From Candidatus Omnitrophota bacterium (lineage in GTDB: Bacteria > Omnitrophota > Omnitrophia > Omnitrophales > JACROU01): 64,000 nucleotides of DNA. Every line of letters starts with the position of its first letter. Positions within the stretch are counted from its first letter, which is position 1. The position numbers and the translations under genes were made by a program. The stretch spans positions 132,765-196,764 of the forward strand of contig JAJDCD010000004.1 of the NCBI GenBank assembly GCA_029261035.1, given 5' to 3'. This document shows, piece by piece, positions 2,700-62,590 of this stretch. The notes beneath the pieces are model-generated. The model did not search any database and was not told the DNA's origin. It worked only from the letters and a program-made list of their open reading frames with translations.

Positions 2700-4228
2700 T
2701 TTTTAATCGTTTTTTTATAGCGAATCCAACGAAAAATAGTTCCAAGTAAAAGAATGCTGCACGGAAGATACACTGTAGGGGTCCAAAAAAGAATTTGCTG
2801 ATCTCCTGACTTGAGGACAAGAGGCGTATTAGGTCTTTGTTTATCCTGTATCCGTACTAAAGATAATTCGTCCGTAAGCCAAGCAATACTATTTAATATG
2901 AGATCCCGATTACCTGAGACATTGATATTGTTATTAATCACAAAATCTGAATCGCCAAATACAATCAATTTGTATTTTGTTTTTTGATGCCTCTGCAACT
3001 TAAGGTCTAATTCTGGAAAAGCCGTAACATTATCATCCTCGTTAGATTTTTCTGAGGAGGTTAACAAATCAAGGTTGTTTAACATAACATCAATTTTTGG
3101 AGTCTCACCCCCCTTAGTTGTTACTTTATCCACGCCCCCCACTTGACCTTCAACAACACAAGCAATAGAAACAGGCCCTTTCAAATCTTCAGAAATATCT
3201 AAAAACGCTTCCCCCTTTTCTAACTCTAGAACGTTAGACTCGGCCCAACTTGTTCCACTTGTAAAAGCTAAAGGAATTACAGAAACTCCAGGCGGAATAG
3301 CTTTTGATGGAGTCACTGAACGTGTTACGGGTAGCAAAGAAGCCAAAGTAAAATCGCGCGTTACAGGATGATCAGCATATTGAGTAACGACGGGAACTAA
3401 CAGGTCTGCACCTAAAGCTTTCCCAAGTTTATCCACAATAATGTTTTCTCCTAAATCAACACCCTTACGTCTGACCCATGTCTCAAAGCGAATTAAACTA
3501 TCTGGATTTACAGGATCAATAAGTATCAGTAAGTTACCACCTTCCATTAAATAACGTTCCAAAGAGTCCATTTCCAATTCAGAAAAGTCTGCTTTTGGGC
3601 CAAGAACAAGAACTACATCAGCATCTTCAGGAACGCCTCTATCATCTAAAACTAAATCGTCAACCGCATAGTTTTCATCTTCCAACTTCTGAGCAAGAGC
3701 CAAAGCCCCTCTTTTTGTTTTGCTAGTCATCAAAGACTCTCCATGCCCTTTAACAAAATACACTTTCTTTTTTTCTCCTCGAATAACACGTAAAAATGCA
3801 TTCGTCATTCTTTCTTCGCTAACTCCTTTAAGCCGTTCCGTTCGATCCATCACCTCAATGAGAACAACGCCATATTCATCCACACGGTATTTCTGGGTCA
3901 TAGAAGGTGTTTGATCTGGGTCATAGATAATGACTTGTAGCTTTTTTAATTTAGACTCATAACTCTTCATTAATTCCCTAAAGACTTCCCTCTCTCTGGA
4001 ATTGGATCTAAAAAAGGCTATCACTCTAACAGGTTCGTTTTCGATTTCTTGTAACACTTTGCCTGTAACACTTCCTAAACTAAAAATACGATTAGAGGTA
4101 AGATCAAATCTTAAGTTAAATTGAGTAACAATCCCATAAGCAAAGCAAATTAATATTGTTAAAATTAAAAAGCTAATTCCAATATGAAATTTTCCCCAAA
4201 ATTTAAATCGGCTTAAAGGTTGCTTCAT
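2696..4228 (-). CDS. GldG-like ABC-transporter accessory protein (ABC-type uncharacterized transport system)
   Basis: 510 aa with N- and C-terminal TM helices and a large periplasmic domain. Overlaps the upstream permease gene by 4 nt and lies in an A-F-G order with the ATPase and permease genes. Confidence 0.6.
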   Translation of the reverse strand: MKQPLSRFKFWGKFHIGISFLILTILICFAYGIVTQFNLRFDLTSNRIFSLGSVTGKVLQEIENEPVRVIAFFRSNSREREVFRELMKSYESKLKKLQVIIYDPDQTPSMTQKYRVDEYGVVLIEVMDRTERLKGVSEERMTNAFLRVIRGEKKKVYFVKGHGESLMTSKTKRGALALAQKLEDENYAVDDLVLDDRGVPEDADVVLVLGPKADFSELEMDSLERYLMEGGNLLILIDPVNPDSLIRFETWVRRKGVDLGENIIVDKLGKALGADLLVPVVTQYADHPVTRDFTLASLLPVTRSVTPSKAIPPGVSVIPLAFTSGTSWAESNVLELEKGEAFLDISEDLKGPVSIACVVEGQVGGVDKVTTKGGETPKIDVMLNNLDLLTSSEKSNEDDNVTAFPELDLKLQRHQKTKYKLIVFGDSDFVINNNINVSGNRDLILNSIAWLTDELSLVRIQDKQRPNTPLVLKSGDQQILFWTPTVYLPCSILLLGTIFRWIRYKKTIKK

Positions 4229-10295: not shown

Positions 10296-11126
10296 TCATG
10301 AATTCAGCTTCTTCCGTTTTTTTTCTGCGCTCGAAAGCAGCTTCTTTACAGAAGACCATTTCTTCCCTTTCGACAATTTTATAAAATGATCCAAAGTTTT
10401 CCTGTATTCTTTTAAGGAAGAAAGAAGAAATGGATTCGATGAAACAATATCCACCCATAACCCAGCATCCCCTTGAGCCACACGTGTCACATCTTTAAAC
10501 CCAGCACCACCAAACTGGATATTTTTTGATGGTATAGACTCGATCAAAAGAGAAGCCATCACATGAGGTAAATGACTTATATCCCCGACAATCTTGTCAT
10601 GATCCTTACTCGATACAACAGAAACACGGGCAGCGCCTGCTTTTTTCCAAAAAAGACTCACTTTTTTTATATCTTTTAACGTTCCATGATCTCGCGTCAC
10701 AAAAACCAAAGACTTCTCATACAGCCTCGCTTGCGCCGAAGACAAACCTGATCGATGCCCACCCGCCATAGGATGAGAGCCAACAAAATTCACCTTTTTT
10801 AATTTTGCTTTTTTAATTTTGTCTACAATGGATTTTTTTGTACTACCAACATCCGTAACCAACACTCTACGACTCACGGCTTTATCAATTCTTGAAACAG
10901 TCTCAACAATTTTAGAAACAGGAACACAAACACAAATCAACTCAACATCGTGAGGGATATCAGAAAATGCATTAATTCCTTTAAAAATAATTTTTGTATT
11001 CTTTGCTGTTCGAAGCTTCTTCTTATCCCGAGACAAACCCCACACTTCGTACTTTTTTCCTAACGACAAACCCAAAGAAGCACCCATCAAACCCAAACCT
11101 ACAATCAATACCTTCTTCTTTTTCAT
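10296..11126 (-). CDS. tyrA: prephenate/arogenate dehydrogenase
   Basis: N-terminal Rossmann motif VLIVGLGLMGAS and TyrA-like length within an aromatic amino-acid cluster. Confidence 0.75.
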   Translation of the reverse strand: MKKKKVLIVGLGLMGASLGLSLGKKYEVWGLSRDKKKLRTAKNTKIIFKGINAFSDIPHDVELICVCVPVSKIVETVSRIDKAVSRRVLVTDVGSTKKSIVDKIKKAKLKKVNFVGSHPMAGGHRSGLSSAQARLYEKSLVFVTRDHGTLKDIKKVSLFWKKAGAARVSVVSSKDHDKIVGDISHLPHVMASLLIESIPSKNIQFGGAGFKDVTRVAQGDAGLWVDIVSSNPFLLSSLKEYRKTLDHFIKLSKGKKWSSVKKLLSSAEKKRKKLNS

Positions 11127-11186: not shown

Positions 11187-12203
11187 TTAAATTTCCCTGC
11201 CGACCGCTCCTGCAACCTTCTTCAACTCAGCCATCAAAAGAGCAAATTTTTCAGGAAGCAAAGACTGCGCCCCATCACTAAAAGCATCCACAGGATTATT
11301 ATGCACTTCAATCATAATCCCATCAGCCCCACCCGCCAAAGCAGCTTTCGCCAATGGCCCTACATAATCCCAACGCCCTGTCCCATGAGAAGGGTCAACC
11401 AAAATAGGTAAATGTGTTTCGCTTTTCACAACAGGAATGGCATTGAGATCCAATGTATTTCGTGTTGCTGTTTCAAAAGTTCTAATACCTCTTTCAGCAA
11501 GCATTACATTAAAGTTTCCTTTGGACAATATATACTCTGCCGAAAGCAACCACTCTTTAACGGTAGAGCTCAGTCCTCGTTTAAGTAGGGTTGGTTTTTT
11601 TGAAATACCCACCTCTCTCAATAAATCAAAATTCTGCATATTACGAGCTCCAATTTGTAACATATCCGCATACTTAGCAACTATTTCTACTTGTCTCGTA
11701 TCCATCACTTCTGTGACAACCTGTAGCCCAACCTCGTCTGCCACTTCTCTCAAATACTTCAACCCCTCTTCCCCTAAACCTTGGAAAGCGTATGGAGATG
11801 TTCTTGGTTTAAACGCTCCTCCACGCAAAAAAGTAGCCCCCGACTTTTTAACTTCCTTCGCAATCAAATAAAGCATATCTCTATTTTCAACAGAGCAAGG
11901 CCCCGCCATCACCACAACTTTTTTGCCACCCACAATGGTTCCATCATTCATTTTAAATGAAGAGCTCTCATCTTTAAACTCACGGCTCACCAATTTATAA
12001 GGCTTTTCTATAGGAACAACACTCTCTACTCCAGGAAACGTTTCTAAAGATTCAACTCGAACTTTCCCCTCTTCTCCAATAACACCAATCACAGTTTTCT
12101 CAACCCCTCGAGAAATATTAGGGGTAAACCCTAGGTCTTTAACTTTTTGAACTACATGTTCTAGCTGAACAGGAGTTGCGCTTTTTTTCATTACAATAAT
12201 CAT
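11187..12203 (-). CDS. 3-deoxy-7-phosphoheptulonate (DAHP) synthase, type I-beta, with N-terminal regulatory domain
   Basis: KDO8P/DAHP synthase core motifs ([20 protein letters not shown]). Lies within the aromatic cluster. Confidence 0.75.
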
Positions 12204-40304: not shown

Positions 40305-42539
40305 ATGAGACATCTCCTTTTTGTTCTATTATTTTTAGTTATTTCTACCCCTTTTGCTGAGGCCAGCATTATCGGAGCATTAGAGAACGTAACTCGACAA
40401 ATTGAGTCCGGAGGTTCATCTAGTAACAACACCTCTTCATCCTCCAGCTCAAGACCTTCTAGCACCACAAATACCAACCCCTCACAATATGAAACTCAAT
40501 ACCCAACACTCATGCCTTCAGACGGAAGCAGTGGCTCTGTTATGTCTATCGATCCAACAACAGGCACAGTGACTCAAAGCTCTTTAAATCCTGATGGCTC
40601 CAGAACGGTAACCGAAACAAACGCGGATGGAAATACAACAGAAGAAGTAATCCCTGAAGATCAACCGGATAGTGCCTCTTCTCTAGATTCCGAAACCGGA
40701 ATCACAACTACTTCCGTTGAAAACCCAGATGGGTCTCGTACTGTTATTGAAACGGATGCCGAAGGCAACATCGTAAGTTCAACACGTGTCCCATCAACGC
40801 AAACAACATCTGCCTCTGCTACAGATCCTGACACAGGCATCACAACAACATCTACTCGAAACGCAGACGGATCTAGAACCGTCACACAAACAGACGCGGA
40901 TGGAAATGTTTTAAATACGCGGAATGAACCCGCTCGTGGTTCAGGAAGATCTTCTGCTTCTTCTACAAATACAGATACTGGCGTTACAACAACTTCAACT
41001 CGCAATGCCGATGGCTCTAGCACAGTTACAGAAACAGACTCTCAAGGTAATACCCTCAGTTCGCGCAACGAGCCCGCCCGAGGATCACGCCCAGACTCTG
41101 CATCCGCCACCGACACCCGTACAGGAAATACAACAACATCCACTCGAAACGCAGATGGCTCTCGCACCGTCACTCAAACAGACTCTCAAGGAAATACTCT
41201 TTCAACACGAACAGAACCTAATAGAAATTCAACACCTTCTTTTGCATCTTCAACCGATTCTAATACAGGAATTACAACAACTTCGACTCAAAATGCCGAT
41301 GGCTCTCGTACGGTCAATCAAACAGACTCTAATGGCAACCTTCTCAATTCTCGAAGAGAACCTGCTCGTGGCTCGAGTCCAAGCTCTGCTTCTTCAACGA
41401 ACACCGATACAGGAGTCACTACAACATCGACTCGCAATGCAAACGGCTCCCGTACGGTTACTGAAACGGACGAGCAAGGAAATACATTAAATACTAGGAA
41501 CGAGCCTGCTCGTGGTTCCCGTCCAACATCTGCATCTGCCACAGATACAAATACCGGAATCACAACAACGTCCACTCGCAATACAGACGGTTCGCGTACC
41601 GTTACCGAAACAGACGAGCAAGGAAATACCTTAAATACAAGAAACGAGCCTGCTCGTGGTTCCCGCCCTACTTCAGCTTCAGCAACGGATACGAATACAG
41701 GCATTACAACAACGTCCACACGCAATACGGACGGATCTCGTACCGTTACCGAAACAGACGAGCAAGGAAATACCTTAAGCACCCGAAACGAGCCTGCTCG
41801 TGGAACAACCCCCTCTTCTGCTTCTGCGACAAACCCAGACACAGGAATTACAACAACATCAACACGTAACCCGGATGGTTCTAGAACTGTGACTCAAACG
41901 GATAAAGATGGAAATGTGTTAAATACACGCAACGAACCCGCCAGAGGAACAGGAACATCCTCCGCCTCTTCAACAAATACCGATACAGGTGTCACAACGA
42001 CATCCACTCAAAACGCAGATGGGTCTCGTACGGTTACAGAAACAGATAAAGACGAAAATGTTCTAGGCTCTCGCAACGAACCCGTATCAGGTACAGCCCC
42101 CTCTTCGGTAACATCAACAGATATGCTGTCAGGAGCACAAACAACCTCTACTATGAATCCCGATAAAAGCAGAACCCTTATCTTAAAAGACAAAGATGGA
42201 AAAGTAATTTCGAAAGAAACTACATATGGGTCCACAGGAATCGTTTCTAAAGTAACTTATAATAAAGATGGAACAGCTTTATTTATTCAAAAGGATGGAA
42301 GAGGTAGAACACTGATGGAAAAATCCTTCGCAAAAGTGCTGCAACCTAAATTTAGAAATCAAGCCATTGATATTCTATTTAACGTATCTAGACCGCAGGT
42401 GTACTCCTTACCTGGTTTTGCCAGCGCTCCTGGTTATCCAGCAACTCCAGACAAAACGGTTATCAATAATTCTTTAGGAGAAAAGATACAAGAGTACGAA
42501 GGCCCTCCTCGCGATTATGATGGGTCCAATTACCAGTAG
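40305..42539 (+). CDS. secreted Ser/Thr-rich tandem-repeat surface protein (putative adhesin-like)
   Basis: Signal peptide MRHLLFVLLFLVISTPFAEA. About 11 tandem 48-aa units (SASATDTNTGITTTSTRNxDGSRTVTETDxQGNTLxTRNEPARGSRPx), then a non-repetitive C-terminal domain. Confidence 0.75.
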   Translation: MRHLLFVLLFLVISTPFAEASIIGALENVTRQIESGGSSSNNTSSSSSSRPSSTTNTNPSQYETQYPTLMPSDGSSGSVMSIDPTTGTVTQSSLNPDGSRTVTETNADGNTTEEVIPEDQPDSASSLDSETGITTTSVENPDGSRTVIETDAEGNIVSSTRVPSTQTTSASATDPDTGITTTSTRNADGSRTVTQTDADGNVLNTRNEPARGSGRSSASSTNTDTGVTTTSTRNADGSSTVTETDSQGNTLSSRNEPARGSRPDSASATDTRTGNTTTSTRNADGSRTVTQTDSQGNTLSTRTEPNRNSTPSFASSTDSNTGITTTSTQNADGSRTVNQTDSNGNLLNSRREPARGSSPSSASSTNTDTGVTTTSTRNANGSRTVTETDEQGNTLNTRNEPARGSRPTSASATDTNTGITTTSTRNTDGSRTVTETDEQGNTLNTRNEPARGSRPTSASATDTNTGITTTSTRNTDGSRTVTETDEQGNTLSTRNEPARGTTPSSASATNPDTGITTTSTRNPDGSRTVTQTDKDGNVLNTRNEPARGTGTSSASSTNTDTGVTTTSTQNADGSRTVTETDKDENVLGSRNEPVSGTAPSSVTSTDMLSGAQTTSTMNPDKSRTLILKDKDGKVISKETTYGSTGIVSKVTYNKDGTALFIQKDGRGRTLMEKSFAKVLQPKFRNQAIDILFNVSRPQVYSLPGFASAPGYPATPDKTVINNSLGEKIQEYEGPPRDYDGSNYQ
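40550..42140 (+). repeat. intragenic 144-bp tandem repeats (about 11 copies, near-identical in the centre)
   Basis: The three consecutive central units are nearly identical at the protein level and at the nucleotide level. Antisense ORFs in this span are frame artefacts of the repeats. Confidence 0.8.
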
Positions 42540-44140: not shown

Positions 44141-44250
44141 TCCCCTCTCCCTTTTTAAGGGAGAGGGCTAGGGTGAGGGTTTGAGTTGATTTAGAATTTA
44201 CCATTAAACCACCCTCACCTTAATCCTCTCCCTCCAAAGGAAGGAGAGGA
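44141..44250. repeat. nested palindromes built from GGGAGAGG / GGTGAGGG motifs
   Basis: CCCTCTCCCTTTTTAAGGGAGAGGGCTAGGGTGAGGGT ... ACCCTCACCTTAATCCTCTCCCTCCAAAGGAAGGAGAGG. Confidence 0.5.
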
Positions 44251-52799: not shown

Positions 52800-52842
52800 A
52801 GATCGATAGCGCTATAATCTTTTCACTTTGGAGGAAGTAAAT
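52800..52842 (+). promoter_or_regulatory. putative promoter/RBS for the XRE regulator gene
   Basis: TATAAT at 52813-52818 and GGAGGAAG at 52830-52837 ahead of an in-frame TTG at 52843. Confidence 0.35.
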
Positions 52843-53391
52843 TTGGATATCGGTTTTCGCATTCGACAAGTTAGGAAAGAAAAAAACATCACTCTTGTTG
52901 AGCTTTCTAAATCAACAGATGTTGCTCAAGCCACTCTCTCTCGTATTGAAACTGGAGATATGACGGGGACTTTAGAGTGTCATAGTAAAGTTGCCAACTC
53001 TCTCGGTATGAGTTTGAGCGAACTTTATGAAGGTATCGATAACCGTTCTGCTAAAACCAAGATTACCAAAAATGGAACTGCCGAACTTCTTTCTAAAAGT
53101 ACGGATCAAATCCGCAGCGAAATTTTAACTTCAAAAGCTTTAAAGAAAAAACTCCTCCCTATCAAAACAACTCTTAAACCAAATTCAAAGTCCGAACCTG
53201 AAAAGGCTGAGAAAGCGACTGAGAAATTTGTTTATTGTACAGAAGGTCAAATCACGGTTTATCTCAATAATGAAGGTCATGATTTAGAAACGGAAGAAAG
53301 TATTTATTTTGATGGGTCTTTACCACACAGCTTCGAAAACAAAACCGCTAAGGTTGCAAAACTCATTAGCGTTACTTCTCCACCCGCGTAA
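52843..53391 (+). CDS. XRE-family HTH transcriptional regulator with C-terminal cupin domain
   Basis: N-terminal HTH_XRE (IGFRIRQVRKEKNITLVELSKSTDVAQATLSRIETG) and a C-terminal cupin-like region. Start is TTG at 52843 or 52828 (non-ATG). Confidence 0.65.
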   Translation: MDIGFRIRQVRKEKNITLVELSKSTDVAQATLSRIETGDMTGTLECHSKVANSLGMSLSELYEGIDNRSAKTKITKNGTAELLSKSTDQIRSEILTSKALKKKLLPIKTTLKPNSKSEPEKAEKATEKFVYCTEGQITVYLNNEGHDLETEESIYFDGSLPHSFENKTAKVAKLISVTSPPA

Positions 53392-53407
53392 ACTTTTTTA
53401 AATCGAA

Positions 53408-54490
53408 TTATTCCTGAGCCAAAACATTTTTATAAATTTCTAATGTTTCTTTCGCTGTTTTTTCCCAGCTAAATTCTGCAGCTTTCATTTGTCCTTTATG
53501 CACCAGCTCTTTTCTTAATTGATCATCTACGAGTATGTTTTCGATACCGATCGAGATTTCTTCTATGTCGTAAGGGTTTACTAGTTCTGCTGAGTCTTTG
53601 CCTAATTCTCCGAGACTGGAGTTGTTCGAGCAAAGCACGGGTGTTCCGCAATGAAAGGCTTCGATGAGCGGTAAACCGAATCCTTCGTACAAAGAAACAA
53701 AAGCTACCATTTCGGCTGCGCTATAAGCACAGCTGAGTATTTCGTCCGAAACGAACCCGGTGGTGATGACGTCTTCTTCTAATCCGTTTTGTTTGACGGC
53801 CTTTTCGAACTCGCTACTTCCCCATTGTTTTGCGCCGACGACTAAGAGTTTGGGGATGTCTTTTCTTCTTTTTTTGACTAGGTTAAATGCTTCGAGGAGT
53901 CGGACTAAGTTTTTTCTGGGTTCGATGGTTCCGACGCACAGGACGAAGGGGTCTGTGAGTCCTAGTTCTTTTTCTAAGATTTGTTTTGCGATATCTGTTG
54001 GTTTTTTGACGATGTTGTTGTCGGGTGCGATGTAGGTTACGGATATTTTTTCGGGTGCGATGCCTAAGTGTTCGATGAGGTCTTTTCTTGAGTTTTCGGA
54101 TACGGTGATGAGGTGGTCTGCTTTTTTAAAGCATTTTGGGAGCCATTTACTCCAGTAGTAGCGTGAGCTGAAAGACAAGTTTTGAGGAAATAGGTACCCG
54201 ATGATGTCGTGGGCTGTGATGATGACTTTTGAGTGTTTGAGTTTTTTGACGCCGAAGCCGGGGACGTGGAAGATATCAGCGTTGGATTGCTTGATTATGC
54301 GTGGCAGGGTTACTGCTTCCCAGTAGAGGCGGTTTGGGGTTTTTAGGTCGCCTGTGATGTTGCCGCCTACCTTTCTTAGGTCTAGGCTTGGGTCGTTGAT
54401 TTGTTCGATTGCCTTGATTAGATTGCCTACGTAACGTGGGATTCCTGTGGCGGTTCCGGTTAGGGTGTGGGTGTCTATGGTTAGGTTCAT
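53408..54490 (-). CDS. glycosyltransferase family 4 (GT1-fold)
   Basis: EGFGLPLIEAFHCGTPVLCS signature E-x7-E region. Higher GC than the genome background. Confidence 0.75.
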   Translation of the reverse strand: MNLTIDTHTLTGTATGIPRYVGNLIKAIEQINDPSLDLRKVGGNITGDLKTPNRLYWEAVTLPRIIKQSNADIFHVPGFGVKKLKHSKVIITAHDIIGYLFPQNLSFSSRYYWSKWLPKCFKKADHLITVSENSRKDLIEHLGIAPEKISVTYIAPDNNIVKKPTDIAKQILEKELGLTDPFVLCVGTIEPRKNLVRLLEAFNLVKKRRKDIPKLLVVGAKQWGSSEFEKAVKQNGLEEDVITTGFVSDEILSCAYSAAEMVAFVSLYEGFGLPLIEAFHCGTPVLCSNNSSLGELGKDSAELVNPYDIEEISIGIENILVDDQLRKELVHKGQMKAAEFSWEKTAKETLEIYKNVLAQE

Positions 54491-54500
54491 TTTTTGGCCG

Positions 54501-54734
54501 CTATTTCGTTAATTGTATAGCAGCTGATGTCGCTGCTATCAGTATTAGAATTAAAAGGATTATGTATTTTCCTTTGTTTAGCTGGCGTTCTTGTTTTTTT
54601 AGCCAGCTTTTTACGATGGTTTGTTTTTTGTCGGAATACTCGCCTTTTGTTAGGCGGGCTTCGACTGCTTCTTTGCCTAGGAGTTTTAGGCTCTTTTCGA
54701 ATTCTTTCCAGTAGTGGGTATCTTCGTGTTCCAT
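54501..54734 (-). CDS. small tail-anchored membrane protein (hypothetical)
   Basis: 77 aa with a C-terminal TM helix IILLILILIAATSAAI. Co-directional with and immediately upstream of the GT gene. Other overlapping ORFs in 54436-54946 were rejected. Confidence 0.4.
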   Translation of the reverse strand: MEHEDTHYWKEFEKSLKLLGKEAVEARLTKGEYSDKKQTIVKSWLKKQERQLNKGKYIILLILILIAATSAAIQLTK

Positions 54735-54896
54735 GGTTATCCTCTTCGCTTTGCATGGGATTTAACGTTGGGGGTATTATACAGGAAGTGGGGGGATTTG
54801 GCACGAGTGGGGTGGTTGTTCGGTTCCCTTTGTCATCTTTGGCTTGGTTGGGGATCTGGGGGTTTTGGAGTGGTATACTTTTAGTAGAGGACGAAA

Positions 54897-55553
54897 ATGG
54901 GAAATACAATAAAAATCAAAAAACATCCTACAAAAAACAATCCTAATTATTTTTTAATAGATTCAGACTTTTTTGTTAATAGATACCTATCTAAACATTT
55001 GTCATATTTAAACCTAAACTCGGGAAATAGTGGTGAAGAATCAATAGAAAAAAGTGCTTTATGGTGGAATGAAATTAATTCTCAGCTAAAAAATGAAATA
55101 GCTTATCTATTTATTCCAAATGTTTGCATTTCAGAGACATTTAAAGTCCTAGCTAAAAGACAATACGACAAAGATGAAAAAATCATTAAGAAATATAAAT
55201 ATTACAAGGAGTTAATCGATGAAATTTCAGAAGATCTTCATGTCAACCCTAAACTTCCCGAAACACAGAAGAAAAAACAAAGAATTCATGACCTAGAAAC
55301 AAACCGTGATATTGTTATTGGAACAGATAGATTTTTAAGGTTAATAATGAAAAATGGTTATAAAACAATATCAACATTTGATTTAATGTTGCTAGTTCAT
55401 GGAAAGTTGCTTTTGAAACATTACAACTTTAATAAGAGAAATCTCTTTATTATTACAGGAGATAAAACGCTATACAATGCCTCTAAACCATTTCCTGATA
55501 TTCCACGAGTATGCTGTCCTAACATAAACTCATTTGATAGTTCATTCGATTAA
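54897..55553 (+). CDS. PIN-domain nuclease-like protein
   Basis: Acidic quartet in canonical PIN order: FLIDSDFF, ISETF, HDLETNRD, TFDLML and FIITGDKT (T-x-D). About 30% GC. Confidence 0.5.
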   Translation: MGNTIKIKKHPTKNNPNYFLIDSDFFVNRYLSKHLSYLNLNSGNSGEESIEKSALWWNEINSQLKNEIAYLFIPNVCISETFKVLAKRQYDKDEKIIKKYKYYKELIDEISEDLHVNPKLPETQKKKQRIHDLETNRDIVIGTDRFLRLIMKNGYKTISTFDLMLLVHGKLLLKHYNFNKRNLFIITGDKTLYNASKPFPDIPRVCCPNINSFDSSFD

Positions 55554-55643
55554 ACCCAACGCATTCAATTTTAAAGGTTTAATACCAAAATCGAATTCTA
55601 GATAGATTGGATACGTAGTTTACGAGCGTTAAAACAATAACTG

Positions 55644-58058
55644 CTAAAATGGTAAAGAAGATTTATTTTTAAGTAAATAATATTTTGCATGTGCAATCAA
55701 GAAAACCTTGTTTCTAAAGAAAAAGAACCTTTTTTCTCCTAACTTCTTTTTCAAAATCTTAACATCATCGAATGGTTTATCGGCCTTTTTATCATAACCT
55801 AGCATGTAACTCTTATTAAACAAAGTCTCTATTAGCTTCTCTTTTTTTAACTGATTAAACTTAAACTCTCTAAGAATCTTGATAAATTTCCTATACTCAA
55901 TCTGCTTACCATGATACTCTTGCAACCTTGTAAGAATTTCGGATATTTCTGGAAACTCAGCCCTTGTTTCTGCTATTAAATTATTATTCAAAAACTCTGT
56001 ATAACTTGTAATAGCATATTTTAAGTCCTTTCTATCTACTTTGTGATTGCCATTATTGATAGCAGACTCGAATAACTTTGCAACAAAATATATTAAGTCT
56101 CTTGGACGCTTCGTAATAATCTCCTGTATTATTTCAAAAGGGTGCCTTTTCTCTTTAAAGTTAAAAAATTCCCTCCATGCTTTTTTTTCTAACAATTCAC
56201 TGTCGGACTCATCCAATTTTAATATATGCGCAAATCTATTCTCAATTAACTTTTTTAATAGGCCCGGATAATCTTCCCAGTTTATATAGTGAGCCATAAG
56301 AACTAACTTATCAGGCTCTGCTACCTCGTTGCGAATATAGTTGAATATATCTTCTCTTAAAAAAATAATTTGTTTAACCTCAACCTGAGAATCTTTACTA
56401 AGTAATTCTTTTTGTATTTTATTTTCTATCTCTAATAAAGTACTCATCATCTCTGATTGTATTTTAAGATCATTTTTGGGATCCCAAGTCTTATCTAAAT
56501 TGTCTGCTAAAACAATCACTTTATAGTATTTTTTTCTAATTGATGTAAAGTAATTACGCAAACATGCAGTTAATGGCGAAAGGTATTCTTTAAAAAGAGT
56601 CTCCATGACCTCGGGACCGGAAATCTCCCTTGAATTTGTTCTTCTAACATTAACTTCTCGAACAACTCCAAAAAAGTTAAGCTTAGTGAACTCTTCATTT
56701 TTTTCTACAAAATTTATTATAGCTTCCTCCTCATCAGTCATTGTTACACTATTTTTTTCATCAAGTATACGCTCCACAATAGAAATAGCTAGTTTTGAAA
56801 AAATTACTAATTTCCACACAGCAACAAAAAAGCTTATTCTAGAAGAATCAAATAGTTTGGACAGCTGAATGTCATCAAGCAATTCATCAGACTCAGGTTT
56901 CAAACTAACAATATAATTATTTTTTTCTTCTGGCAAATCATCAGATAATTTGATGTAGATAGCAGATTTTCCACTACCTTTTCGCCCAACAACAATCGAC
57001 TTTTTATAATTTAATGCTTTTTGATATGAAGCAGTATTAACAAAATAACTTAAGAGTTCCCGACTCTCATTCTCTGCTATGTCACACCCAATACCCAACT
57101 CGATTAAATTTGTTTCATGTTCTATGATTTCACTCTTCTCTTGCGTTGTATCAAAAGCTAGTTGTTTGTCCAACCAAGGACTAATAAATTCCTTTATTTC
57201 ATCAGAAATTTCATAAGTAACCAAAATATCATGGTAATCTAAAGGTGGTTTGAACTTTGCAGGTGCAAGCAACAAAACATCACATCCCCATCCACAAGCA
57301 ACTCCAGCATAAAAAGCATTTTTTGCGTTTTCCATAAATGAATTTTGATAATTCTCTCCTAAAAGATGAATAAGAACCACTCTTGCCTTTAAAAGGTTCT
57401 GAAAATACCAAGTTAATGTTTGATATTTAATTTCAGATAAATCATCTGCAACAAGAGATAGTGACTTATTGTCTTTATAATCAATAATATGGTCCGTAAG
57501 CTCTATTGAATCTTGAGTTGCAAGTTTACTTTGAATATAAAATATGTCTGTACTTTTAGAGGTTAGATTTTTAAAATTCACAAACTTATTTAAAAGATTA
57601 TTTTCAAAGCTTTTTTGCTGAAGGGCTTTCTGGATACAATATGAATTTTTAAAAGGTATATAACGAATATCTTTTAGAATAAATTCTTTGTAAATCTTAT
57701 TGGGAAACCCAAGCTCATTATTAACACTAATATTTTCATTAATTAAGATTAGAATATATTTATTTTTTGCTATAGCATATCCAAGCTCAAACAAAACATT
57801 GTGATTAAAATACGTCAGATCACACACAAAAACTTCACTTCCGTCAATTGCTGAAAGGATTTCCTTACTAATTGTAGTTGTTTGTTTATATTCCTCCCAA
57901 CTTCTAGCTTTATAAGTTTTTTGGTGTTGATTAAAGGCTTCAATCGCCTTTTTAATTGATTCAACATTGTTATCAGCTAACCCATTAGAACGTCCTTGAT
58001 AAGCAAAAAATATTTTTTTTTGTGGTAATTCAGAATTTTTTGATACCATTATTACCAA
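55644..58058 (-). CDS. tandem NDT/TIR-like Rossmannoid domains fused to a P-loop NTPase (candidate defence/conflict protein)
   Basis: Residues about 15-110 KIFFAYQG...EVFVCDLTYFNHNVLFELGYAIAKNKYILIL (nucleoside 2-deoxyribosyltransferase-like FE(L/I)GYA motif). Second degenerate copy ...NAFYAGVACGWGCDVLLLAPAKF. Walker A VVGRKGSGKSAIYI and candidate Walker B YKVIVLADNLD. About 400 aa helical C-terminus. About 29% GC. Confidence 0.55.
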   Translation of the reverse strand: MVIMVSKNSELPQKKIFFAYQGRSNGLADNNVESIKKAIEAFNQHQKTYKARSWEEYKQTTTISKEILSAIDGSEVFVCDLTYFNHNVLFELGYAIAKNKYILILINENISVNNELGFPNKIYKEFILKDIRYIPFKNSYCIQKALQQKSFENNLLNKFVNFKNLTSKSTDIFYIQSKLATQDSIELTDHIIDYKDNKSLSLVADDLSEIKYQTLTWYFQNLLKARVVLIHLLGENYQNSFMENAKNAFYAGVACGWGCDVLLLAPAKFKPPLDYHDILVTYEISDEIKEFISPWLDKQLAFDTTQEKSEIIEHETNLIELGIGCDIAENESRELLSYFVNTASYQKALNYKKSIVVGRKGSGKSAIYIKLSDDLPEEKNNYIVSLKPESDELLDDIQLSKLFDSSRISFFVAVWKLVIFSKLAISIVERILDEKNSVTMTDEEEAIINFVEKNEEFTKLNFFGVVREVNVRRTNSREISGPEVMETLFKEYLSPLTACLRNYFTSIRKKYYKVIVLADNLDKTWDPKNDLKIQSEMMSTLLEIENKIQKELLSKDSQVEVKQIIFLREDIFNYIRNEVAEPDKLVLMAHYINWEDYPGLLKKLIENRFAHILKLDESDSELLEKKAWREFFNFKEKRHPFEIIQEIITKRPRDLIYFVAKLFESAINNGNHKVDRKDLKYAITSYTEFLNNNLIAETRAEFPEISEILTRLQEYHGKQIEYRKFIKILREFKFNQLKKEKLIETLFNKSYMLGYDKKADKPFDDVKILKKKLGEKRFFFFRNKVFLIAHAKYYLLKNKSSLPF

Positions 58059-58233
58059 TCTCCATTAATAAATTATTTTTACAGTCCTTCAGTTGTTGCA
58101 GCCTCTGGGCTCAGTTGTTGAATGTTAAAAAAACATTCACTAAACTTTTAACTTATAACTCTCTATTCCTTTTATATTCTTAGAAATAAATTTTGTCAAG
58201 GAATCAAGTTTTTCTGAGGGTATTTTCAAGCCT

Positions 58234-58260
58234 GGATTCCCACCTTCACGGGAATGACAA
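58234..58260 (+). repeat. REP-like hairpin (GGATTCCCACCTTCACGGGAATGACAA)
   Basis: Family member with the CCTGGATTCCC lead-in. Confidence 0.55.
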
Positions 58261-58330
58261 TTGTCTTGGATTCAGTCGTTAAATATCTAATTATACCTCT
58301 TCCCCCTCCTAAGTACGTTATAATTGGGTT

Positions 58331-59941
58331 ATGAAGAGCTACCGTTTCTTATTCACCCTTCTTTTACTCTACCCCTTTCTCATTCTCACCCTTTCTGCTT
58401 TTCGGCCGGGGCCTGTGAACTCTCCTTTTGTGGAATATCAGGAGCCGGAGTTTTTGACTTATGAGGAGCTTCAGGAGTTGAGTCGGAATCCGGAGCCAAA
58501 TCGGAAGTTGAAGGCTAAGCTTGAGCGATTTTGGAAGACCCCTATTATTAGTAATGAGGCTTATATTCAAGGGATGATGCCTGCTGTGAAGAAAAATCGG
58601 CGTTTGGGCACCTTTATGCGAGTTGCGAGTTGGAATATTGAGAAGTCTCTTAATATTCCAGATGCGATTACTGTGTTTACTTCTCCTGAAAAATTTAAGG
58701 GTTTGATTAACACAGATATTCCTGTGGGTTCTACGGATTATGAATATATTCTTTTGCAGCAAAAACGGTTGATGACTTCGGATGTTGTGATCTTGCAGGA
58801 AATGGATATCGGGGTTAAACGATCGGGTTATAGGAATGCGACTGCCGATTTAGCCAAGGCGATGAATATGAATTACGCCTATGGGCCAGAACAGTTGGAA
58901 GTGGATCCTGTGATTCTGAGTCTTGAGAGTTTAAAGTTTGAAGATGATCGTTTGGATGAGGAAGCTACAAAATACTTTAGAGCCGACCCTGAGAAAGTGA
59001 AAGGGGTTTTTGGGAGTGCTGTTTTGTCTAAGTACCCTATCAAGTCTGCAGAGGTGTTTCAGTTAGAGACTCAGACTTATGATTGGTACTCCGGAGAGAT
59101 AAAGAAAACTACGTTTCTTGAGAAAGGGCGAAGAACGGGTTCGAAGACTGTTTTTAAGAATGAGTTGACGCGTGAGGTTAAGGTTGGCGGGCGAATTTTT
59201 TTTAGAGTGGATTTGTATGTGCCTGAGCTTCCGAATGAGACGTTGACGGTGATTAATGTGCATCTTGAGATTAAGTGTACGCCTAAAGGGCGTGAAATGC
59301 AGATGAAAGAGATTTTGAGTTATATTAAGGATATTAAGAATCCGGTGATTTTGGCTGGGGATTTTAATTCTGCCCCTACCGATTTGAGTCCGACGTCGGT
59401 GACTCGGGTTGTGAAACGGACGGCAAAGAATCCGACGACTTGGCTTTCTGTTGGGATTAATTATTTTACGGCTGAGGGGGCTACGATTAACACTTCCCGC
59501 TTTCTTTCTAATGCGACGAAGAATTTTCAAAATCCTTTGGCGAAGCATATTCCGATTGTGGCTCCGAATGCCGTTAAGGGGTTGTTTGATCGGGTTGAGT
59601 ATTTTCGGTTTAAGGATGATGGGGTTTTTGATTTTCGTGGGAATGGTGAAAGGTCGATGAATGGGAAGGATAAGAAGTTGGCTAATTCGAATGAGAGGGA
59701 TTTGATTGGGTTTAAGACGACGTTTCGTGTGAGACGGCCTATTGGGTTTATTGGGAAGTATCGATTGGATTGGATTTTTGTGAAATCGTTTTTGAAGGAT
59801 GGGAACGATGATTTTGGGTCGTATCGGTTTGCTCCGCATTTTGGGGAGACGCTTGAGGAGATGAATACGAGTTTGGTGAGAGCGGTTTCGGATCATCATC
59901 CGAATGTGGTGGATTTGCCTTTTGAGGAGCCGGGGGTTTAG
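58331..59941 (+). CDS. secreted endonuclease/exonuclease/phosphatase (EEP) family protein
   Basis: Signal peptide and EEP motifs: VASWNIE, ILQEMD, VINVHLE, AGDFNS and SDHHP. GC-rich and G+T-rich coding strand. Antisense ORFs 58364-58762 and 59063-60043 rejected. Confidence 0.65.
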   Translation: MKSYRFLFTLLLLYPFLILTLSAFRPGPVNSPFVEYQEPEFLTYEELQELSRNPEPNRKLKAKLERFWKTPIISNEAYIQGMMPAVKKNRRLGTFMRVASWNIEKSLNIPDAITVFTSPEKFKGLINTDIPVGSTDYEYILLQQKRLMTSDVVILQEMDIGVKRSGYRNATADLAKAMNMNYAYGPEQLEVDPVILSLESLKFEDDRLDEEATKYFRADPEKVKGVFGSAVLSKYPIKSAEVFQLETQTYDWYSGEIKKTTFLEKGRRTGSKTVFKNELTREVKVGGRIFFRVDLYVPELPNETLTVINVHLEIKCTPKGREMQMKEILSYIKDIKNPVILAGDFNSAPTDLSPTSVTRVVKRTAKNPTTWLSVGINYFTAEGATINTSRFLSNATKNFQNPLAKHIPIVAPNAVKGLFDRVEYFRFKDDGVFDFRGNGERSMNGKDKKLANSNERDLIGFKTTFRVRRPIGFIGKYRLDWIFVKSFLKDGNDDFGSYRFAPHFGETLEEMNTSLVRAVSDHHPNVVDLPFEEPGV

Positions 59942-59956
59942 GGAGTAATCGATTGT

Positions 59957-60033
59957 CATTCTGAGGGATTTGGCAAATGCGCCGAAGAATCTTTTTGTCA
60001 GAGATCCTTCACTGCGTTCAGGATGACAGGGGG
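59957..60033 (+). repeat. two-hairpin intergenic element, copy B
   Basis: GTCATTCTGAGG...GAAGAATCT...AGATCCTTCACTGCGTTCAGGATGACA, matching copy A at 49063-49136. Confidence 0.65.
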
Positions 60034-60040
60034 TTATATG

Positions 60041-60220
60041 CACCAGTCTTTGGTCTGCTGGGTTTTCAGTATTAGCAATTTTAAAGATTTTGGGAATATA
60101 TGTACCCGTCTTGGGTCTGCTGGATTTCGAGTATTAGCAATTTTAAAACTTTTGGGAGTATACGCACCCGTCTGGGTCTGCTTGGATGTGTTGTATTAAC
60201 AATTTTAAAGATGTTGATCC
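60041..60220 (+). repeat. three tandem direct repeats of about 62 bp
   Basis: Units at 60041-60104, 60105-60166 and 60167-60220 share CCCGTCTTGGGTCTGCTGG..GTATTAGCAATTTTAAA..TTTTGGGAGTATA at about 80% identity. There are no unique spacers between them. Confidence 0.8.
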
Positions 60221-60399
60221 CATGGGGATTCGGCGCCCTCTGTTCGTTACTTGCTGGTCGCAAGCACTCACTCCGGGTCGGCCACTCGCTTCTCATAAAG
60301 AATTCAACAAATAAAGACCTGACATTGGGTCAGTTCTCTATTTATTTCATCGTGATGTATTTGTCGGCGCTCACTTTGAATTCCCAAGGGAATTCAAAC

Positions 60400-60438
60400 A
60401 TAAAAAAGGCCCAGCTGGTTTTTCAGCTGGGCTTTTTT
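60400..60438 (-). terminator. bidirectional Rho-independent terminator directly 3' of tRNA-Glu
   Basis: GCCCAGCTG-GTTTTT-CAGCTGGGC hairpin with a T8 run on the plus strand and A/T-rich flank on the minus strand. An adjacent perfect palindrome TTGAATTCCC-AA-GGGAATTCAA lies at 60369-60390. Confidence 0.65.
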
Positions 60439-60439
60439 T

Positions 60440-60517
60440 TGGCGTCCCCAAGGGGATTCGAACCCCTGTCGCCAGAATGAAAATCTGGTGTCCTAGGCCT
60501 GACTAGACGATGGGGAC
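60440..60517 (-). tRNA. tRNA-Glu (anticodon TTC)
   Basis: GTCCCCATCGTCTAGTCAGGCCTAGGACACCAGATTTTCATTCTGGCGACAGGGGTTCGAATCCCCTTGGGGACGCCA closely resembles bacterial tRNA-Glu. CCA is encoded. Confidence 0.85.
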
Positions 60518-60581
60518 GCAATTTGTTTGTGCAAAAGAGGGCAAATTATAAACTAATGCTGGGGTTATGTAAATAGCCATT

Positions 60582-61253
60582 TTATGAGCTGCGGGTTACT
60601 CCTATTTTTGGGCAGAATTTTTGCATGGGGCATTGGGTGCATTTGGGGGTTCTGGCTTCGCAGAGGGCGCGGCCGTGGTAGATCATTTCATGACAGAATT
60701 GGGTCCAGCGGGGTTTGGGGATGATTTTCATGAGGTCTTGCTCTACCTTTACTGCTTCCTTATTATACTTTGAGAAGCCGAACCTATAGCTCAAGCGGCC
60801 TATGTGGGTGTCTACTACCATGCCTGGGATGTTGAAGGCGTTGCCTAGGACTACGTTGGCTGTTTTGCGGCCTACGCCTCTTAGTTTGACTAGCTTCTCT
60901 AGTTCGTTGGGTACTTCTCCTCCGTGGAGCTCTAGGATGTCTCTGGAGCAAAATTTGATGGATTTGGCTTTGTTGCGGTAGAAGCCTGTCGACTTTACGG
61001 CTTCTTCTATGTCTGTTAAGGGGGCTTCTGCGAATGCTTTTACTGTTGGGTATTTTTTGAAGAGGCCCGGGGTTACTTTGTTTACTCGGACATCCGTGCA
61101 TTGGGCAGATAAGATGGTGGCAATTAAGAGTTGGAACGGGTTGTTATAGATTAGGGCGCAGTGAGCGTCGGGGTATTCTTTTTTGAGACTGCGTAAGACT
61201 TGGCCTACTCGCTTTTTGAGTTCTTCTTGTTTGGTGCTGGTTTTTTGAGTCAT
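60582..61253 (-). CDS. nth: endonuclease III (DNA glycosylase/AP lyase)
   Basis: HhH-GPD fold with catalytic region LVKLRGVGRKTANVVLGNAF and a 4Fe-4S loop CEARTPKCTQCPMQKFC. GC-rich. The internal ORF 60784-61101 is rejected. Confidence 0.85.
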   Translation of the reverse strand: MTQKTSTKQEELKKRVGQVLRSLKKEYPDAHCALIYNNPFQLLIATILSAQCTDVRVNKVTPGLFKKYPTVKAFAEAPLTDIEEAVKSTGFYRNKAKSIKFCSRDILELHGGEVPNELEKLVKLRGVGRKTANVVLGNAFNIPGMVVDTHIGRLSYRFGFSKYNKEAVKVEQDLMKIIPKPRWTQFCHEMIYHGRALCEARTPKCTQCPMQKFCPKIGVTRSS

Positions 61254-61268
61254 TCGTTTTGGGTAAGT

Positions 61269-61751
61269 TTAGTTACTTTGCTTGTCTGCTTCTTCTTTGA
61301 TCATGATGTTCCACTCTTCCCTTTTAACACGAAGAAGATCACCTAAGGTGTGTTCGTAAGCTTTGTCTTCTGTTGATATCGGCAAGTTACGGAACTCGGA
61401 GTCACAGATGTAACATACTTTGAGGAATTGAAGTTTTTTGTAAAGAATCCAATCGATGAAAGCTGCTACGGCTAAACTAAGACCATAAGTCCAAATGCTG
61501 AGAATGGCTCCTGCAATAAAGATGAGGAGGCCTAGCATTTTGTTGAAATCTTTCACCAAGTAAAAGTCATCGTAACCGCATAAGTGGCATTGAAATTTTT
61601 CTGCTTTTGGGTCTGAGACGAATTTAATTTTGTATTCGCAGTTTCCGCACTGGGTTCCCTCGTTAGGATCATCTACGACCACTTCGTTTTTATATTCACA
61701 AGCAGGACAATAATAACGGAAAATTAAGTCTTCATTTTTTTCTTGGCTCAT
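61269..61751 (-). CDS. zinc-ribbon membrane protein (hypothetical)
   Basis: Start moved to the MSQEK Met. Two CxxC pairs (CPACEY...CGNCEY; CHLCGY) followed by TM helices. Confidence 0.4.
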   Translation of the reverse strand: MSQEKNEDLIFRYYCPACEYKNEVVVDDPNEGTQCGNCEYKIKFVSDPKAEKFQCHLCGYDDFYLVKDFNKMLGLLIFIAGAILSIWTYGLSLAVAAFIDWILYKKLQFLKVCYICDSEFRNLPISTEDKAYEHTLGDLLRVKREEWNIMIKEEADKQSN

Positions 61752-62590
61752 AATGGAAATCCTATCGCTTGAAAGATGTAGTCTGCAAAAAGTTCTCCTA
61801 TAAATACAAAAATACAGGCGACATACAAAATACCTGTCGCCGCTTGATTCGAACGAAGTTTTGCTGTTTCTAAAATCATAAAAGATAAAATCAACGGTCC
61901 TAAAATCCCCCACACCACTCTCATGATGAAAAAGAGACCCAACTCGTTAAAAGACACTGCCCGTAACGGCAACGCATGTGCTTGAGGCCCCAGAAAGAAG
62001 TAGAACATCACAAAGAAAAGAATCAGACTCGCACCACGAATGATAGAAGAGGTTACCAAAGTTTTAGAGGCGTTAATCAAGTAACGAAATGGCAAATTAG
62101 GGGTTACTAAATACCAGTGCCCTAAGATCATCGTTCCGTAACTCCAACCCAACAGAACTGACCCCAACAGCAAAGATGTTCCGCCTAATATTTGAGCAAT
62201 AATAGATAGCTCCCCACTGACACCCATCATCCCTCTAGAAAATACAGTGGCAATCCCAGCAAGTACCGCCACAAACAAAAGGACGCGCGTCATCGTAAAA
62301 GCTTTAAATAAAACAAACAGATAAGAAAGTAAGAACACAGACATAACGATAATCAGCATAGTTTGAAATGTTGGATAATATAATTCAAACACAGCTGAGT
62401 TTGGCGCATTAGGATAGTTCTGTAAATAGTTTCTGAAAAGAAACAAGGAAAACAAAAGAAAGGAAAATGCAAAGAACCCATTGAGCAAATAAAAATTATG
62501 CTTTAATTGTTTGAGAGGCATAAATAACATAAACAATAATATGCCCACACCAAATTGTAAAAAAAACAAACTTGCTATTTGAGATAACAT
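61748..62590 (-). CDS. polytopic integral membrane protein (hypothetical)
   Basis: 280 aa with about 8 hydrophobic helices and no catalytic motifs. Confidence 0.45.
   Translation of the reverse strand: MLSQIASLFFLQFGVGILLFMLFMPLKQLKHNFYLLNGFFAFSFLLFSLFLFRNYLQNYPNAPNSAVFELYYPTFQTMLIIVMSVFLLSYLFVLFKAFTMTRVLLFVAVLAGIATVFSRGMMGVSGELSIIAQILGGTSLLLGSVLLGWSYGTMILGHWYLVTPNLPFRYLINASKTLVTSSIIRGASLILFFVMFYFFLGPQAHALPLRAVSFNELGLFFIMRVVWGILGPLILSFMILETAKLRSNQAATGILYVACIFVFIGELFADYIFQAIGFPL

Follow-up and report, generated by a model that had tools for sequence, protein, structure and literature searches.

Are the G+T-rich segments around a tRNA-Glu gene in an Omnitrophota contig pieces of a foreign replicon, or native genes whose silent sites have changed where they stand? 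The locus lies at about 53.4-61.7 kb of the window, by which we mean the whole 64,000-nt stretch analysed from Candidatus Omnitrophota contig JAJDCD010000004.1. It holds three strongly skewed genes, encoding a GT4 glycosyltransferase (GT4), a secreted endonuclease/exonuclease/phosphatase-family protein (EEP) and endonuclease III (nth), together with an AT-rich islet. The phenomenon is a strand compositional asymmetry that is unusually extreme, local and polarity-switching. We favour, at roughly even confidence, the explanation that native GT4 and nth, a relocated EEP gene and a spacer were driven in place by position-dependent, strand-asymmetric mutation pressure. A sequence-only reading of this DNA had explained the skewed segments as layered imports; it was right about the mosaic and about a true insertion within it, but the skewed parts that it took for foreign are native. 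A literature search on local extreme keto (G+T) skew and on skew anomalies in Omnitrophota found no description.

The background, taken from positions 1-53399, has a GC content of 0.383, a GC skew of -0.229 and a G+T content of 0.459. The top strand is C- and A-rich throughout it, and the third-position GC skew of the background open reading frames (ORFs) is about -0.45 on that strand. The minus strand carries 42 of the 47 greedily chosen ORFs of at least 100 aa, an extreme gene-strand bias. Complete Omnitrophota genomes are reported to have two normal replichores, with nearly all genes of each on one strand (preprint 10.1101/2023.11.21.568195), and the strand-biased genes of the window agree with this report. 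Given the ORF count, the top-strand skew and the reported replichore pattern, the window looks like a single replichore whose leading strand is the minus strand. The homologues found for its local genes bear Candidatus Omnitrophica or Omnitrophota names.

Sliding GC, GC skew and G+T profiles bore out the coordinates and skew directions of the three segments and their mosaic composition. The segment at 53400-54900 has a GC content of 0.443, a GC skew of +0.21, an AT skew of -0.33 and a G+T content of 0.64. The corresponding GC, GC skew and G+T values are 0.436, +0.31 and 0.60 at 58331-59950, and 0.446, +0.16 and 0.61 at 60581-61700. A GC content of about 50% had been claimed for them; this describes local peaks, since 100-bp windows within the segments reach 0.50-0.55, whereas the segment means are 0.44-0.45.

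The skew is concentrated at silent sites. We describe it by K3, the G+T share at third codon positions, quoted for the top strand unless the coding or sense strand is stated. K3 is 0.81 in GT4 (minus strand), 0.84 in EEP (plus strand) and 0.85 in nth (minus strand), and 0.30-0.54 in the remaining 44 ORFs of the window; in 200-bp bins it reaches 0.97, 0.94 and 0.90, respectively. The top strand, which is antisense to GT4, has G or T at 81% of the silent sites of this gene and at 93% in its middle third, fading in the 3' third. For EEP, whose sense strand is the top strand, the share is 84%, rising to 93-94% in the last third. For nth, where the top strand is again antisense, it is 85%, with four-fold sites of G 0.57, T 0.36, A 0.03 and C 0.04. 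Across the three genes the top strand at four-fold sites is G 0.43-0.57, T 0.36-0.40, A 0.03-0.11 and C 0.04-0.09, compared with A 0.45, C 0.21, G 0.09 and T 0.25 in the background. Codon positions 1 and 2 move by just 0.01-0.08 in GT4 and nth, with no detectable move in EEP. GC at third positions climbs from about 0.30 to 0.47-0.56 in the skewed genes. Because the wobble sites are about 45% G and about 40% T, the raised GC of the segments (0.44 vs 0.38) is a by-product of the keto skew.

Comparison with other loci shows how rare this is. Retrieved comparison loci carry L-numbers, L082 being that of the closest relative. Coding-strand K3 averages 0.51, with a standard deviation (sd) of 0.064, over 846 ORFs (200 aa or longer) drawn from the window and about 90 fetched bacterial loci. 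The four extremes are nth (0.15), GT4 (0.19) and EEP (0.84) of the window and GT4 of L082 (0.90), each 5-6 sd off the mean; the next most extreme values are 0.30 and 0.70. Only the L082 locus reaches a G+T content of at least 0.61 among 5265 one-kb windows from 1.4 Mb of other loci. The K3 plateaus break off fairly abruptly, close to gene ends (at about 53.5 kb, 54896, about 58.4 kb and about 61.26 kb), and the skew returns to the background sign beyond 61.7 kb. A 979-bp Logan contig is identical to window positions 60489-61467, and three assemblies of L082 agree with one another. A sequencing or assembly artefact is therefore ruled out, as independent assemblies are identical and silent sites alone are affected.

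The block and its left flank comprise the following features, given by window coordinates.

52828-53391, plus strand: XRE-HTH/cupin regulator (Pfam HTH_3 and Cupin_2), the native left flank, convergent with GT4.

53408-54490, minus strand: GT4 glycosyltransferase (Pfam Glycos_transf_1, 1.6e-31), native and syntenic.

54491-54896, no strand: probably non-coding spacer rich in G and T (G+T 0.69, G 0.28, T 0.41), which relatives lack.

54527-54946, plus strand, and 54487-54909, minus strand: spurious-looking ORFs on the spacer.

54897-55553, plus strand: islet gene 1, a 218-aa ORF with a GC content of 0.28 and without the top-strand skew.

55644-58058, minus strand: islet gene 2 (804 aa), a Sll1717-family P-loop ATPase with a TIR-like N-terminus and a GC content of 0.30.

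58331-59941, plus strand: EEP, secreted endonuclease/exonuclease/phosphatase-family protein (PF03372).

59953-60028, no strand: REP/MITE-like hairpin at the 3' end of EEP (-35 kcal/mol, z -2.95).

60030-60215, no strand: three tandem 62-bp repeats, the copies 69-84% identical to the first, with a G+T content of 0.63.

60409-60432, no strand: GC-rich hairpin with T-runs on both sides, found by a terminator scan.

60440-60517, minus strand: tRNA-Glu(UUC), found by ARAGORN and Rfam.

60582-61253, minus strand: nth, endonuclease III (PF00730), native and syntenic.

61269-61751, minus strand: p161, a conserved CxxC protein of about 160 aa, upstream of nth, with orthologs in L082 and L088.

On the top strand of the window, G and T are enriched alike in GT4 and nth on the minus strand, in part of p161 on the same strand, in EEP on the plus strand and in the non-coding spacer. 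The p161 gene forms the right-hand tail of the skew (K3 0.55-0.70, four-fold G 0.25), and background composition is back from the next gene, at 61748-62590; on the left, the XRE gene is unskewed (K3 0.54, four-fold G 0.10). Non-coding DNA of the block takes part, with G+T contents of 0.69 in the spacer at 54491-54896 and 0.63 in the tandem repeats; 22 background spacers have 0.35-0.57, with a mean of 0.47. Runs of G are 5-7 times denser on the G-rich strand of the block. The sequence-only reading had held that the G+T excess ignores gene orientation and is hence mutational, and the high K3 of GT4, EEP and nth in their two orientations bears this out. Because the excess follows the DNA strand across both gene orientations, non-coding DNA and the neighbouring tails, it points to mutation and not to codon preference. 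It is also diffuse, as the block holds no enriched motif and no Chi- or KOPS-like words. There is no G-quadruplex motif in the block (the sole one in the window is at 44159), no DnaA box between 51038 and 63732, and no dif-like site was found. A permissive Rfam scan of 53-62 kb returned the tRNA alone, plus terminator-driven noise.

The skewed genes GT4 and nth stand in a conserved gene order. The nearest relative, L082/L084, is one genome recovered from ENA, from JGI (a 2.17-Mb contig) and from Logan, and has a GC content of 0.38 at this locus. Its order is PepA, a 280-aa membrane protein, the 161-aa protein, nth, tRNA-Glu, GT4, XRE/cupin on the opposite strand, HHH, glyQ, glyS, PPDK and sigma-70, and the window matches it. 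The whole order, including tRNA-Glu, is kept in L088/L089 (GC 0.47), and GT4-XRE-HHH-glyQS is kept in L087 and L095. The position of tRNA-Glu is conserved in L082, L088 and L095. On this comparative evidence, nth-tRNA-Glu-GT4-XRE-HHH-glyQ-glyS is ancestral Omnitrophota synteny. The proteins have diverged in step with their flanks. Identities for the pairs window-L082, window-L088 and L082-L088 are 68/60/61% for nth and 59/53/54% for GT4, and 71/60/60% for XRE, 66/58/55% for glyS and 85/77/76% for PPDK. The best hits of nth, GT4 and EEP are Omnitrophota, the same affinity as that of the flanking genes, so a check of taxonomic affinity lends the proposed import nothing. The best non-self matches among 5.8 billion proteins are 68% identical for nth, 59% for GT4 and 65% for EEP, and no closer donor was found there. 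A search of genome contigs with GlyQ yielded no close genome, returning distant phyla only, at up to 70% identity, and a search of metagenome contigs with a GT4 alignment returned the L082 genome again and nothing else. The nth homologues P0003, P0007 and P0008 belong to unrelated, non-syntenic organisms and add no third member of the clade.

The same locus is anomalous in L082, with the opposite polarity. Its GT4 has a K3 of 0.90, up to 0.96 in bins, and four-fold sites of G 0.61, T 0.30, A 0.08 and C 0.01. The 3' 300 bp of its nth are as affected as GT4; the edge inside nth is sharp, K3 rising from 0.57 to 0.88 within 200 bp. On the other side the skew tails across the oppositely oriented XRE gene. 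G is thus enriched on the L082 plus strand in the 3' half of nth and in GT4, both on the plus strand, and in part of XRE, on the minus strand. For nth and GT4, then, G+T is enriched on the sense strand in L082 and on the antisense strand in the window, so that the sense K3 of GT4 is 0.90 in L082 vs 0.19 in the window. At conserved residues the two genomes use the same codon in 20% of cases in GT4 and 23% in nth, vs 47-57% in the flanking genes. The silent sites appear, from these codon counts, to have evolved independently in the two lineages. Distant relatives with GC contents of 47-50% have no skew at the locus. Replacement sites of GT4 follow the same polarity: polarised transitions at codon positions 1 and 2, counted toward A/C vs the other way, are 13:6 for the branch of the window and 3:11 for that of L082 (Fisher p = 0.013). 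The replacement transitions of GT4 and p161 in the window differ from those of background genes (p = 0.009 and 0.019).

EEP supplies a third line of evidence because its surroundings differ between genomes. It has 810 homologues at E <=1e-20; the best of those listed are 55-65% identical, and the named ones are Omnitrophica. In L090 (1-11693) and L091 (1-12894) the gene stands divergently beside phoB-phoR, a porin and pstSCAB-phoU, and in L092 it is at yet another locus. These three loci hold its closest homologues with retrievable contigs, and in all three the gene is unskewed (K3 0.47-0.51). EEP is unskewed elsewhere and here as skewed as its new neighbours, which points to a position effect. 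A gene conserved in Omnitrophota, it was relocated here against the prevailing gene orientation. The pho/pst neighbourhood in L090 and L091 suggests that it may encode a phosphate-starvation-induced secreted phosphatase or nuclease. A TATAAT box lies about 5 nt upstream of its ATG, suggesting a leaderless mRNA. The first 10-20 codons of EEP in the window (58331-58400) and of GT4 in L082 (11323-11352) escape the skew.

The explanation that we favour would run as follows. Net A to G and C to T change on the top strand would have brought the silent sites near saturation, at 80-97% G/T, while normal purifying selection kept the proteins and the GC content rose as a by-product. The process would be tied to position and not to gene or orientation, hitting any sequence up to about 1-3 kb away from the tRNA-Glu locus, and would work at the same locus on the opposite strand in L082. 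The islet would have been inserted afterwards and would so far be unaffected. The skew, its strand coherence and its concentration mainly at silent sites are established by these observations, as are the native origin of the genes, the parallel anomaly in L082 and the lack of the islet in relatives. The mutational cause is inferred: the net change matches what deaminated A and C would leave on a strand exposed unusually often in single-stranded form. Candidate sources are the displaced strand of an R-loop, template exposed at stalled or uncoupled forks, and repeated one-strand repair synthesis. G-richness and single-strandedness could reinforce each other, in a loop that might let either polarity become fixed.

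A to G and C to T are the directions expected of deamination in single-stranded DNA and of replication- and transcription-associated asymmetries. Replication-associated asymmetry likewise gives a one-strand G+T excess that disregards gene orientation and peaks at silent sites, and its ordinary form is present in the window background; the patch differs in comprising about 5 kb of native sequence, in its opposite sign, in a K3 of 0.8-0.97 vs about 0.6, and in not lying at an origin or terminus. Transcription leaves a G+T excess on the non-template strand, and R-loops are favoured by G-rich displaced strands. The patch shares with this asymmetry the net A to G and C to T bias and the denser G-runs on its G-rich strand. 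EEP of the window and GT4 of L082 fit it well: in both, as in the 3' half of L082 nth, G+T is enriched on the non-template strand. In GT4, nth and p161 of the window and in the XRE tail of L082 it is the template strand that is G+T-rich. Unlike transcriptional asymmetry, the zone extends across a tRNA gene as well as a bidirectional terminator, other strongly expressed loci of the window are normal, and the effect is far larger than transcriptional skews as reported. A comparably extreme keto skew at wobble sites is known from the heavy strand of animal mitochondria and is ascribed to deamination (C to T and A to G) during long exposure of that strand in single-stranded form; there it covers a whole replicon with strand-displacement replication, whereas here it is a kilobase-scale patch in a bacterium.

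Strand-coordinated clusters of mutations on exposed single-stranded DNA are also known, as in kataegis, and deaminase toxins such as DddA/SsdA are known as well. At third positions of window 53600-61253 and L082 10350-12399, the residual C on the G+T-rich strand is rarest after T, at 2%, compared with 5-7% after the other three bases. The C to T component may thus prefer a 5'-TC context, although counts are small and codon structure confounds them. The patch resembles kataegis-like clusters in this and in its strand-coordinated transitions over kilobases, but it is near equilibrium under selection and not a burst, A to G exceeds C to T, and there is no deaminase gene at the locus.

Several observations weigh against mutation pressure acting in place. 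Non-coding DNA of the block is less skewed (0.53-0.69) than the wobble sites (0.8-0.97), the reverse of what a neutral model predicts, and this is the main point in favour of selection on codons. It is softened in that some spacers of the block may be young, as with the REP element and the tandem repeats, and others constrained by the promoter, the terminator or the tRNA. None of the three remaining tRNA genes of the window has the effect. Replacement sites show no directionality on the window branch in nth (12:8) or in EEP (31:34), the EEP polarisation being uninformative because it is confounded by a GC drop from 50% to 38%. GT4 and nth of the window are apparently co-oriented with replication and have 81-85% A/C at their sense wobble sites, the reverse of the leading-strand and non-template-strand expectation. 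A single long plus-strand transcript over EEP and nth would have to pass the strong bidirectional terminator at 60409-60432, which speaks against it. The clade, finally, is sampled by two genomes, each at this one locus.

Fork arrest at a Ter site, 5' resection from a fixed break, tRNA read-through and a long EEP-sense transcript were each considered and rejected because strand or edge geometry is wrong in at least one of the two genomes; the last is contradicted by the terminator at 60409-60432 as well. Replication, transcription and inversion, in their simple forms, each fail to account for the two genomes together.

A tentative extension of position-dependent mutation pressure is a self-reinforcing zone of runaway strand asymmetry around tRNA-Glu in one low-GC Omnitrophota clade, which we put forward as a possibility only. 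One strand, often left single-stranded by R-loops or by stalled or uncoupled forks, would gain G and T by deamination, become more exposed as a result, and continue until its silent sites were near saturation. Such a zone would be bistable, settling on the sense strand in one lineage and on the antisense strand in the other. The polarity flip might follow the insertion of EEP pointing against replication. EEP is the one structural difference that tracks polarity; in the window it runs against the prevailing gene direction, and its own sense strand is G+T-rich.

Of the rival explanations, homologous replacement survives best, though we regard it as unlikely. The nth-tRNA-Glu-GT4 stretch, and EEP with it, would have recombined in from an unsampled close relative that was already skewed, and the fairly abrupt plateau edges near gene ends and the sharp left edge inside nth of L082 are what such an exchange might leave. 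The identities of nth and GT4 in the window sit exactly where those of the flanks do, and the window-L082 protein identity is equal on either side of the L082 nth edge (67% and 68%). The search of 5.8 billion proteins described above offers no closer donor. A donor with the same synteny should have G+T-rich sense strands, the opposite of GT4 and nth in the window, because the replichores of complete Omnitrophota genomes place almost all genes on one strand (10.1101/2023.11.21.568195). Replacement also leaves the tails into p161 and into XRE of L082 to be explained, and merely shifts the unexplained skew to the donor.

Selection on synonymous sites seems improbable to us. Under this reading G/U-ending or A/C-ending codon dialects would be tuned to tRNA wobble modification, or transcripts would be kept low in self-complementarity. 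Wobble sites are indeed more extreme than the non-coding spacers, the first codons of EEP and of GT4 in L082 are unskewed as if initiation were separately selected, and nth and EEP have little or no bias at their replacement sites. Selection on codons would nevertheless have to give GT4 opposite dialects in sister lineages (sense K3 of 0.19 vs 0.90). The rule follows the DNA strand in both genomes, reaches non-coding DNA (0.69 and 0.63) and the tails in neighbouring genes, and is followed by the replacement sites of GT4.

Descent from a foreign replicon, with the G+T-rich segments as layered acquisitions beside a tRNA gene and bounded by the XRE regulator, is very improbable, although the composition is atypical, a tRNA gene is adjacent, a genuine islet lies in the middle and EEP is elsewhere in relatives. 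The tRNA and XRE genes, which had been taken for island boundaries, are conserved neighbours, and gene order and orientation including both are conserved in four related genomes. The proteins are congruent with their flanks, the EEP homologues are of Omnitrophota type, and the GC content is explained by the wobble skew. Strand-symmetrised dinucleotide delta* values of 90-103 in the three segments lie within the native range (null mean 65, 95th percentile 107), and the raw tetranucleotide distance, raised in the segments, is raised in the native right flank too. No integrase or recombinase was found among the main ORFs of at least 120 aa in 52.8-62.6 kb (Pfam, NCBIfam and PADLOC). The 27-nt and 15-nt 3' sequences of tRNA-Glu occur only once in the window even with 2-3 mismatches allowed, giving no att-like repeat, and a repeat search found no flanking repeat around the block. 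Conserved synteny, congruent identities, a native-range signature and the lack of an integrase or att site together leave import of the G+T-rich parts unsupported. The locus does resemble a tRNA-linked genomic island in having extra DNA between the tRNA and the next conserved gene, with AT-rich, defence-type genes absent from relatives; it is unlike one in having no integrase and no duplicated tRNA 3' end, and in that its oddest parts, GT4 and nth, are conserved neighbours and not cargo.

Least probable of all is a recent local inversion or change of replication direction that left a wrong-way patch. In its favour, the GC skew has the reverse sign of that in the adjoining 53 kb to the left and 2.3 kb to the right, as is classical for an inverted segment. 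Order and orientation with respect to the flanks are nevertheless as in relatives, the patch is no mirror of the background (four-fold G/T of 0.43-0.57/0.36-0.40 vs 0.21/0.45 on the G-rich background strand), the L082 anomaly involves no sign reversal, and there is no DnaA-box cluster or dif-like site. The gene-strand bias of the clade also makes it implausible that fork direction was reversed across more than 60 kb of housekeeping genes sharing one orientation.

The window does contain inserted DNA. It holds about 5.9 kb more than L082, L088 and L095 between tRNA-Glu and GT4, comprising, from left to right, the 406-bp spacer, the islet with its two ORFs, EEP, the REP-like hairpin and the three 62-bp repeats. 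In those three genomes tRNA-Glu is 11 to about 150 bp from GT4 and the content of 54491-60440 is absent from this site, with GT4 and nth present. The islet at 54901-58100 has a GC content of 0.296 and background-type skew. Its left junction at 54896/54897 is abrupt, with G+T falling from 0.73 to 0.39 and GC from 0.50 to 0.21. It is absent from all relatives examined (L082, L087, L088 and L095). Islet gene 1 is weakly PIN-like (PF16289, E 0.0055, below cut-off). The 804-aa protein matches NF047389 over residues 324-751 (210.6 bits vs a cut-off of 75, E 4.7e-62); its residues 40-111 have weak matches, below cut-offs, to Nuc_deoxyrib_tr and to a PADLOC TIR effector, and there is a weak PDC-M28C match. 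Homologues with about 30% identity turn up on plasmids of several phyla, in Bacillus, Leptolyngbya, Leptospira and enterobacteria. We conclude that the gene is probably a mobile, putative defence gene.

The islet alone among the compositional segments is thus a credible insertion on these sequence grounds, and at about 3.4 kb it looks like the most recent event. The islet of roughly 29% GC that the sequence-only reading had singled out (29.6% as measured) was borne out, being absent from the relatives examined and carrying defence-type genes with a patchy, plasmid-borne distribution. Its wider proposal of horizontal acquisition survives in part: the islet is a credible insertion and EEP has a different locus in relatives, but GT4 and nth are syntenic. 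The small membrane protein that it had placed beside GT4 (ORF 54527-54946) did not hold, as the ORF has no Pfam family match and lacks the wobble-peaked skew periodicity of real genes; it is probably non-coding.

Local GC and skew anomalies next to tRNA genes are routinely taken to mark islands or inversions. In this block the genes with the anomaly are native and only the AT-rich middle is foreign, which calls for caution in composition-based detection of horizontal transfer. Indices of codon adaptation and dS will misbehave for the skewed genes. If the change is mutational and took place in situ, the locus would be a kilobase domain with a one-strand bias of about 10-30 to 1, comparable to mitochondrial heavy strands, and a natural system for learning what keeps a strand exposed, be it R-loops, fork stalling, head-on genes or missing repair. 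Should the self-reinforcing zone also be real, it would be a natural, heritable, kilobase-scale hypermutation domain acting on bacterial housekeeping genes.

The tRNA-Glu gene has a near-consensus promoter at 60573-60545 (TTTACA-17-TATAAT, from a promoter scan) and is 90-91% identical to its counterparts in L082 and L088. The hairpin at 60409-60432 is predicted to end its transcription and would also end plus-strand transcripts leaving EEP. The tandem 62-bp repeats at 60030-60215 lie downstream of this terminator and are absent from L082. The REP/MITE-like element type (GTCATTCTGAGG...CAGGATGAC) is common to the window and L082 at different positions; the L082 copies are at 3826-3897, with two related ones at about 10730-10775 and about 10960-11005, between nth and tRNA-Glu.

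The A+C-rich strand loses stop codons and so yields long spurious ORFs, an annotation hazard. The antisense frame is free of stops because its first codon base pairs with the G/T wobble base and is therefore never T. Examples are 59063-60043 (minus strand, 326 aa) and 54487-54909 (minus strand, 140 aa) in the window and 11350-11949 (minus strand, 199 aa) in L082. These by-product ORFs are rich in R, P, N, K, I and H. The stop of ORF 54487-54909 overlaps the start codon of GT4, as ATGA.

Outside the block, one of the few plus-strand genes (40305-42539) encodes a secreted protein of 744 aa, built of T/S/D/N-rich repeats of about 45 aa (TDxxTGxTTTSTRNADGSRTVTETD) and with no Pfam match. Its GC content of 0.456 is raised in codon positions 1 and 2, and not at the wobble position.

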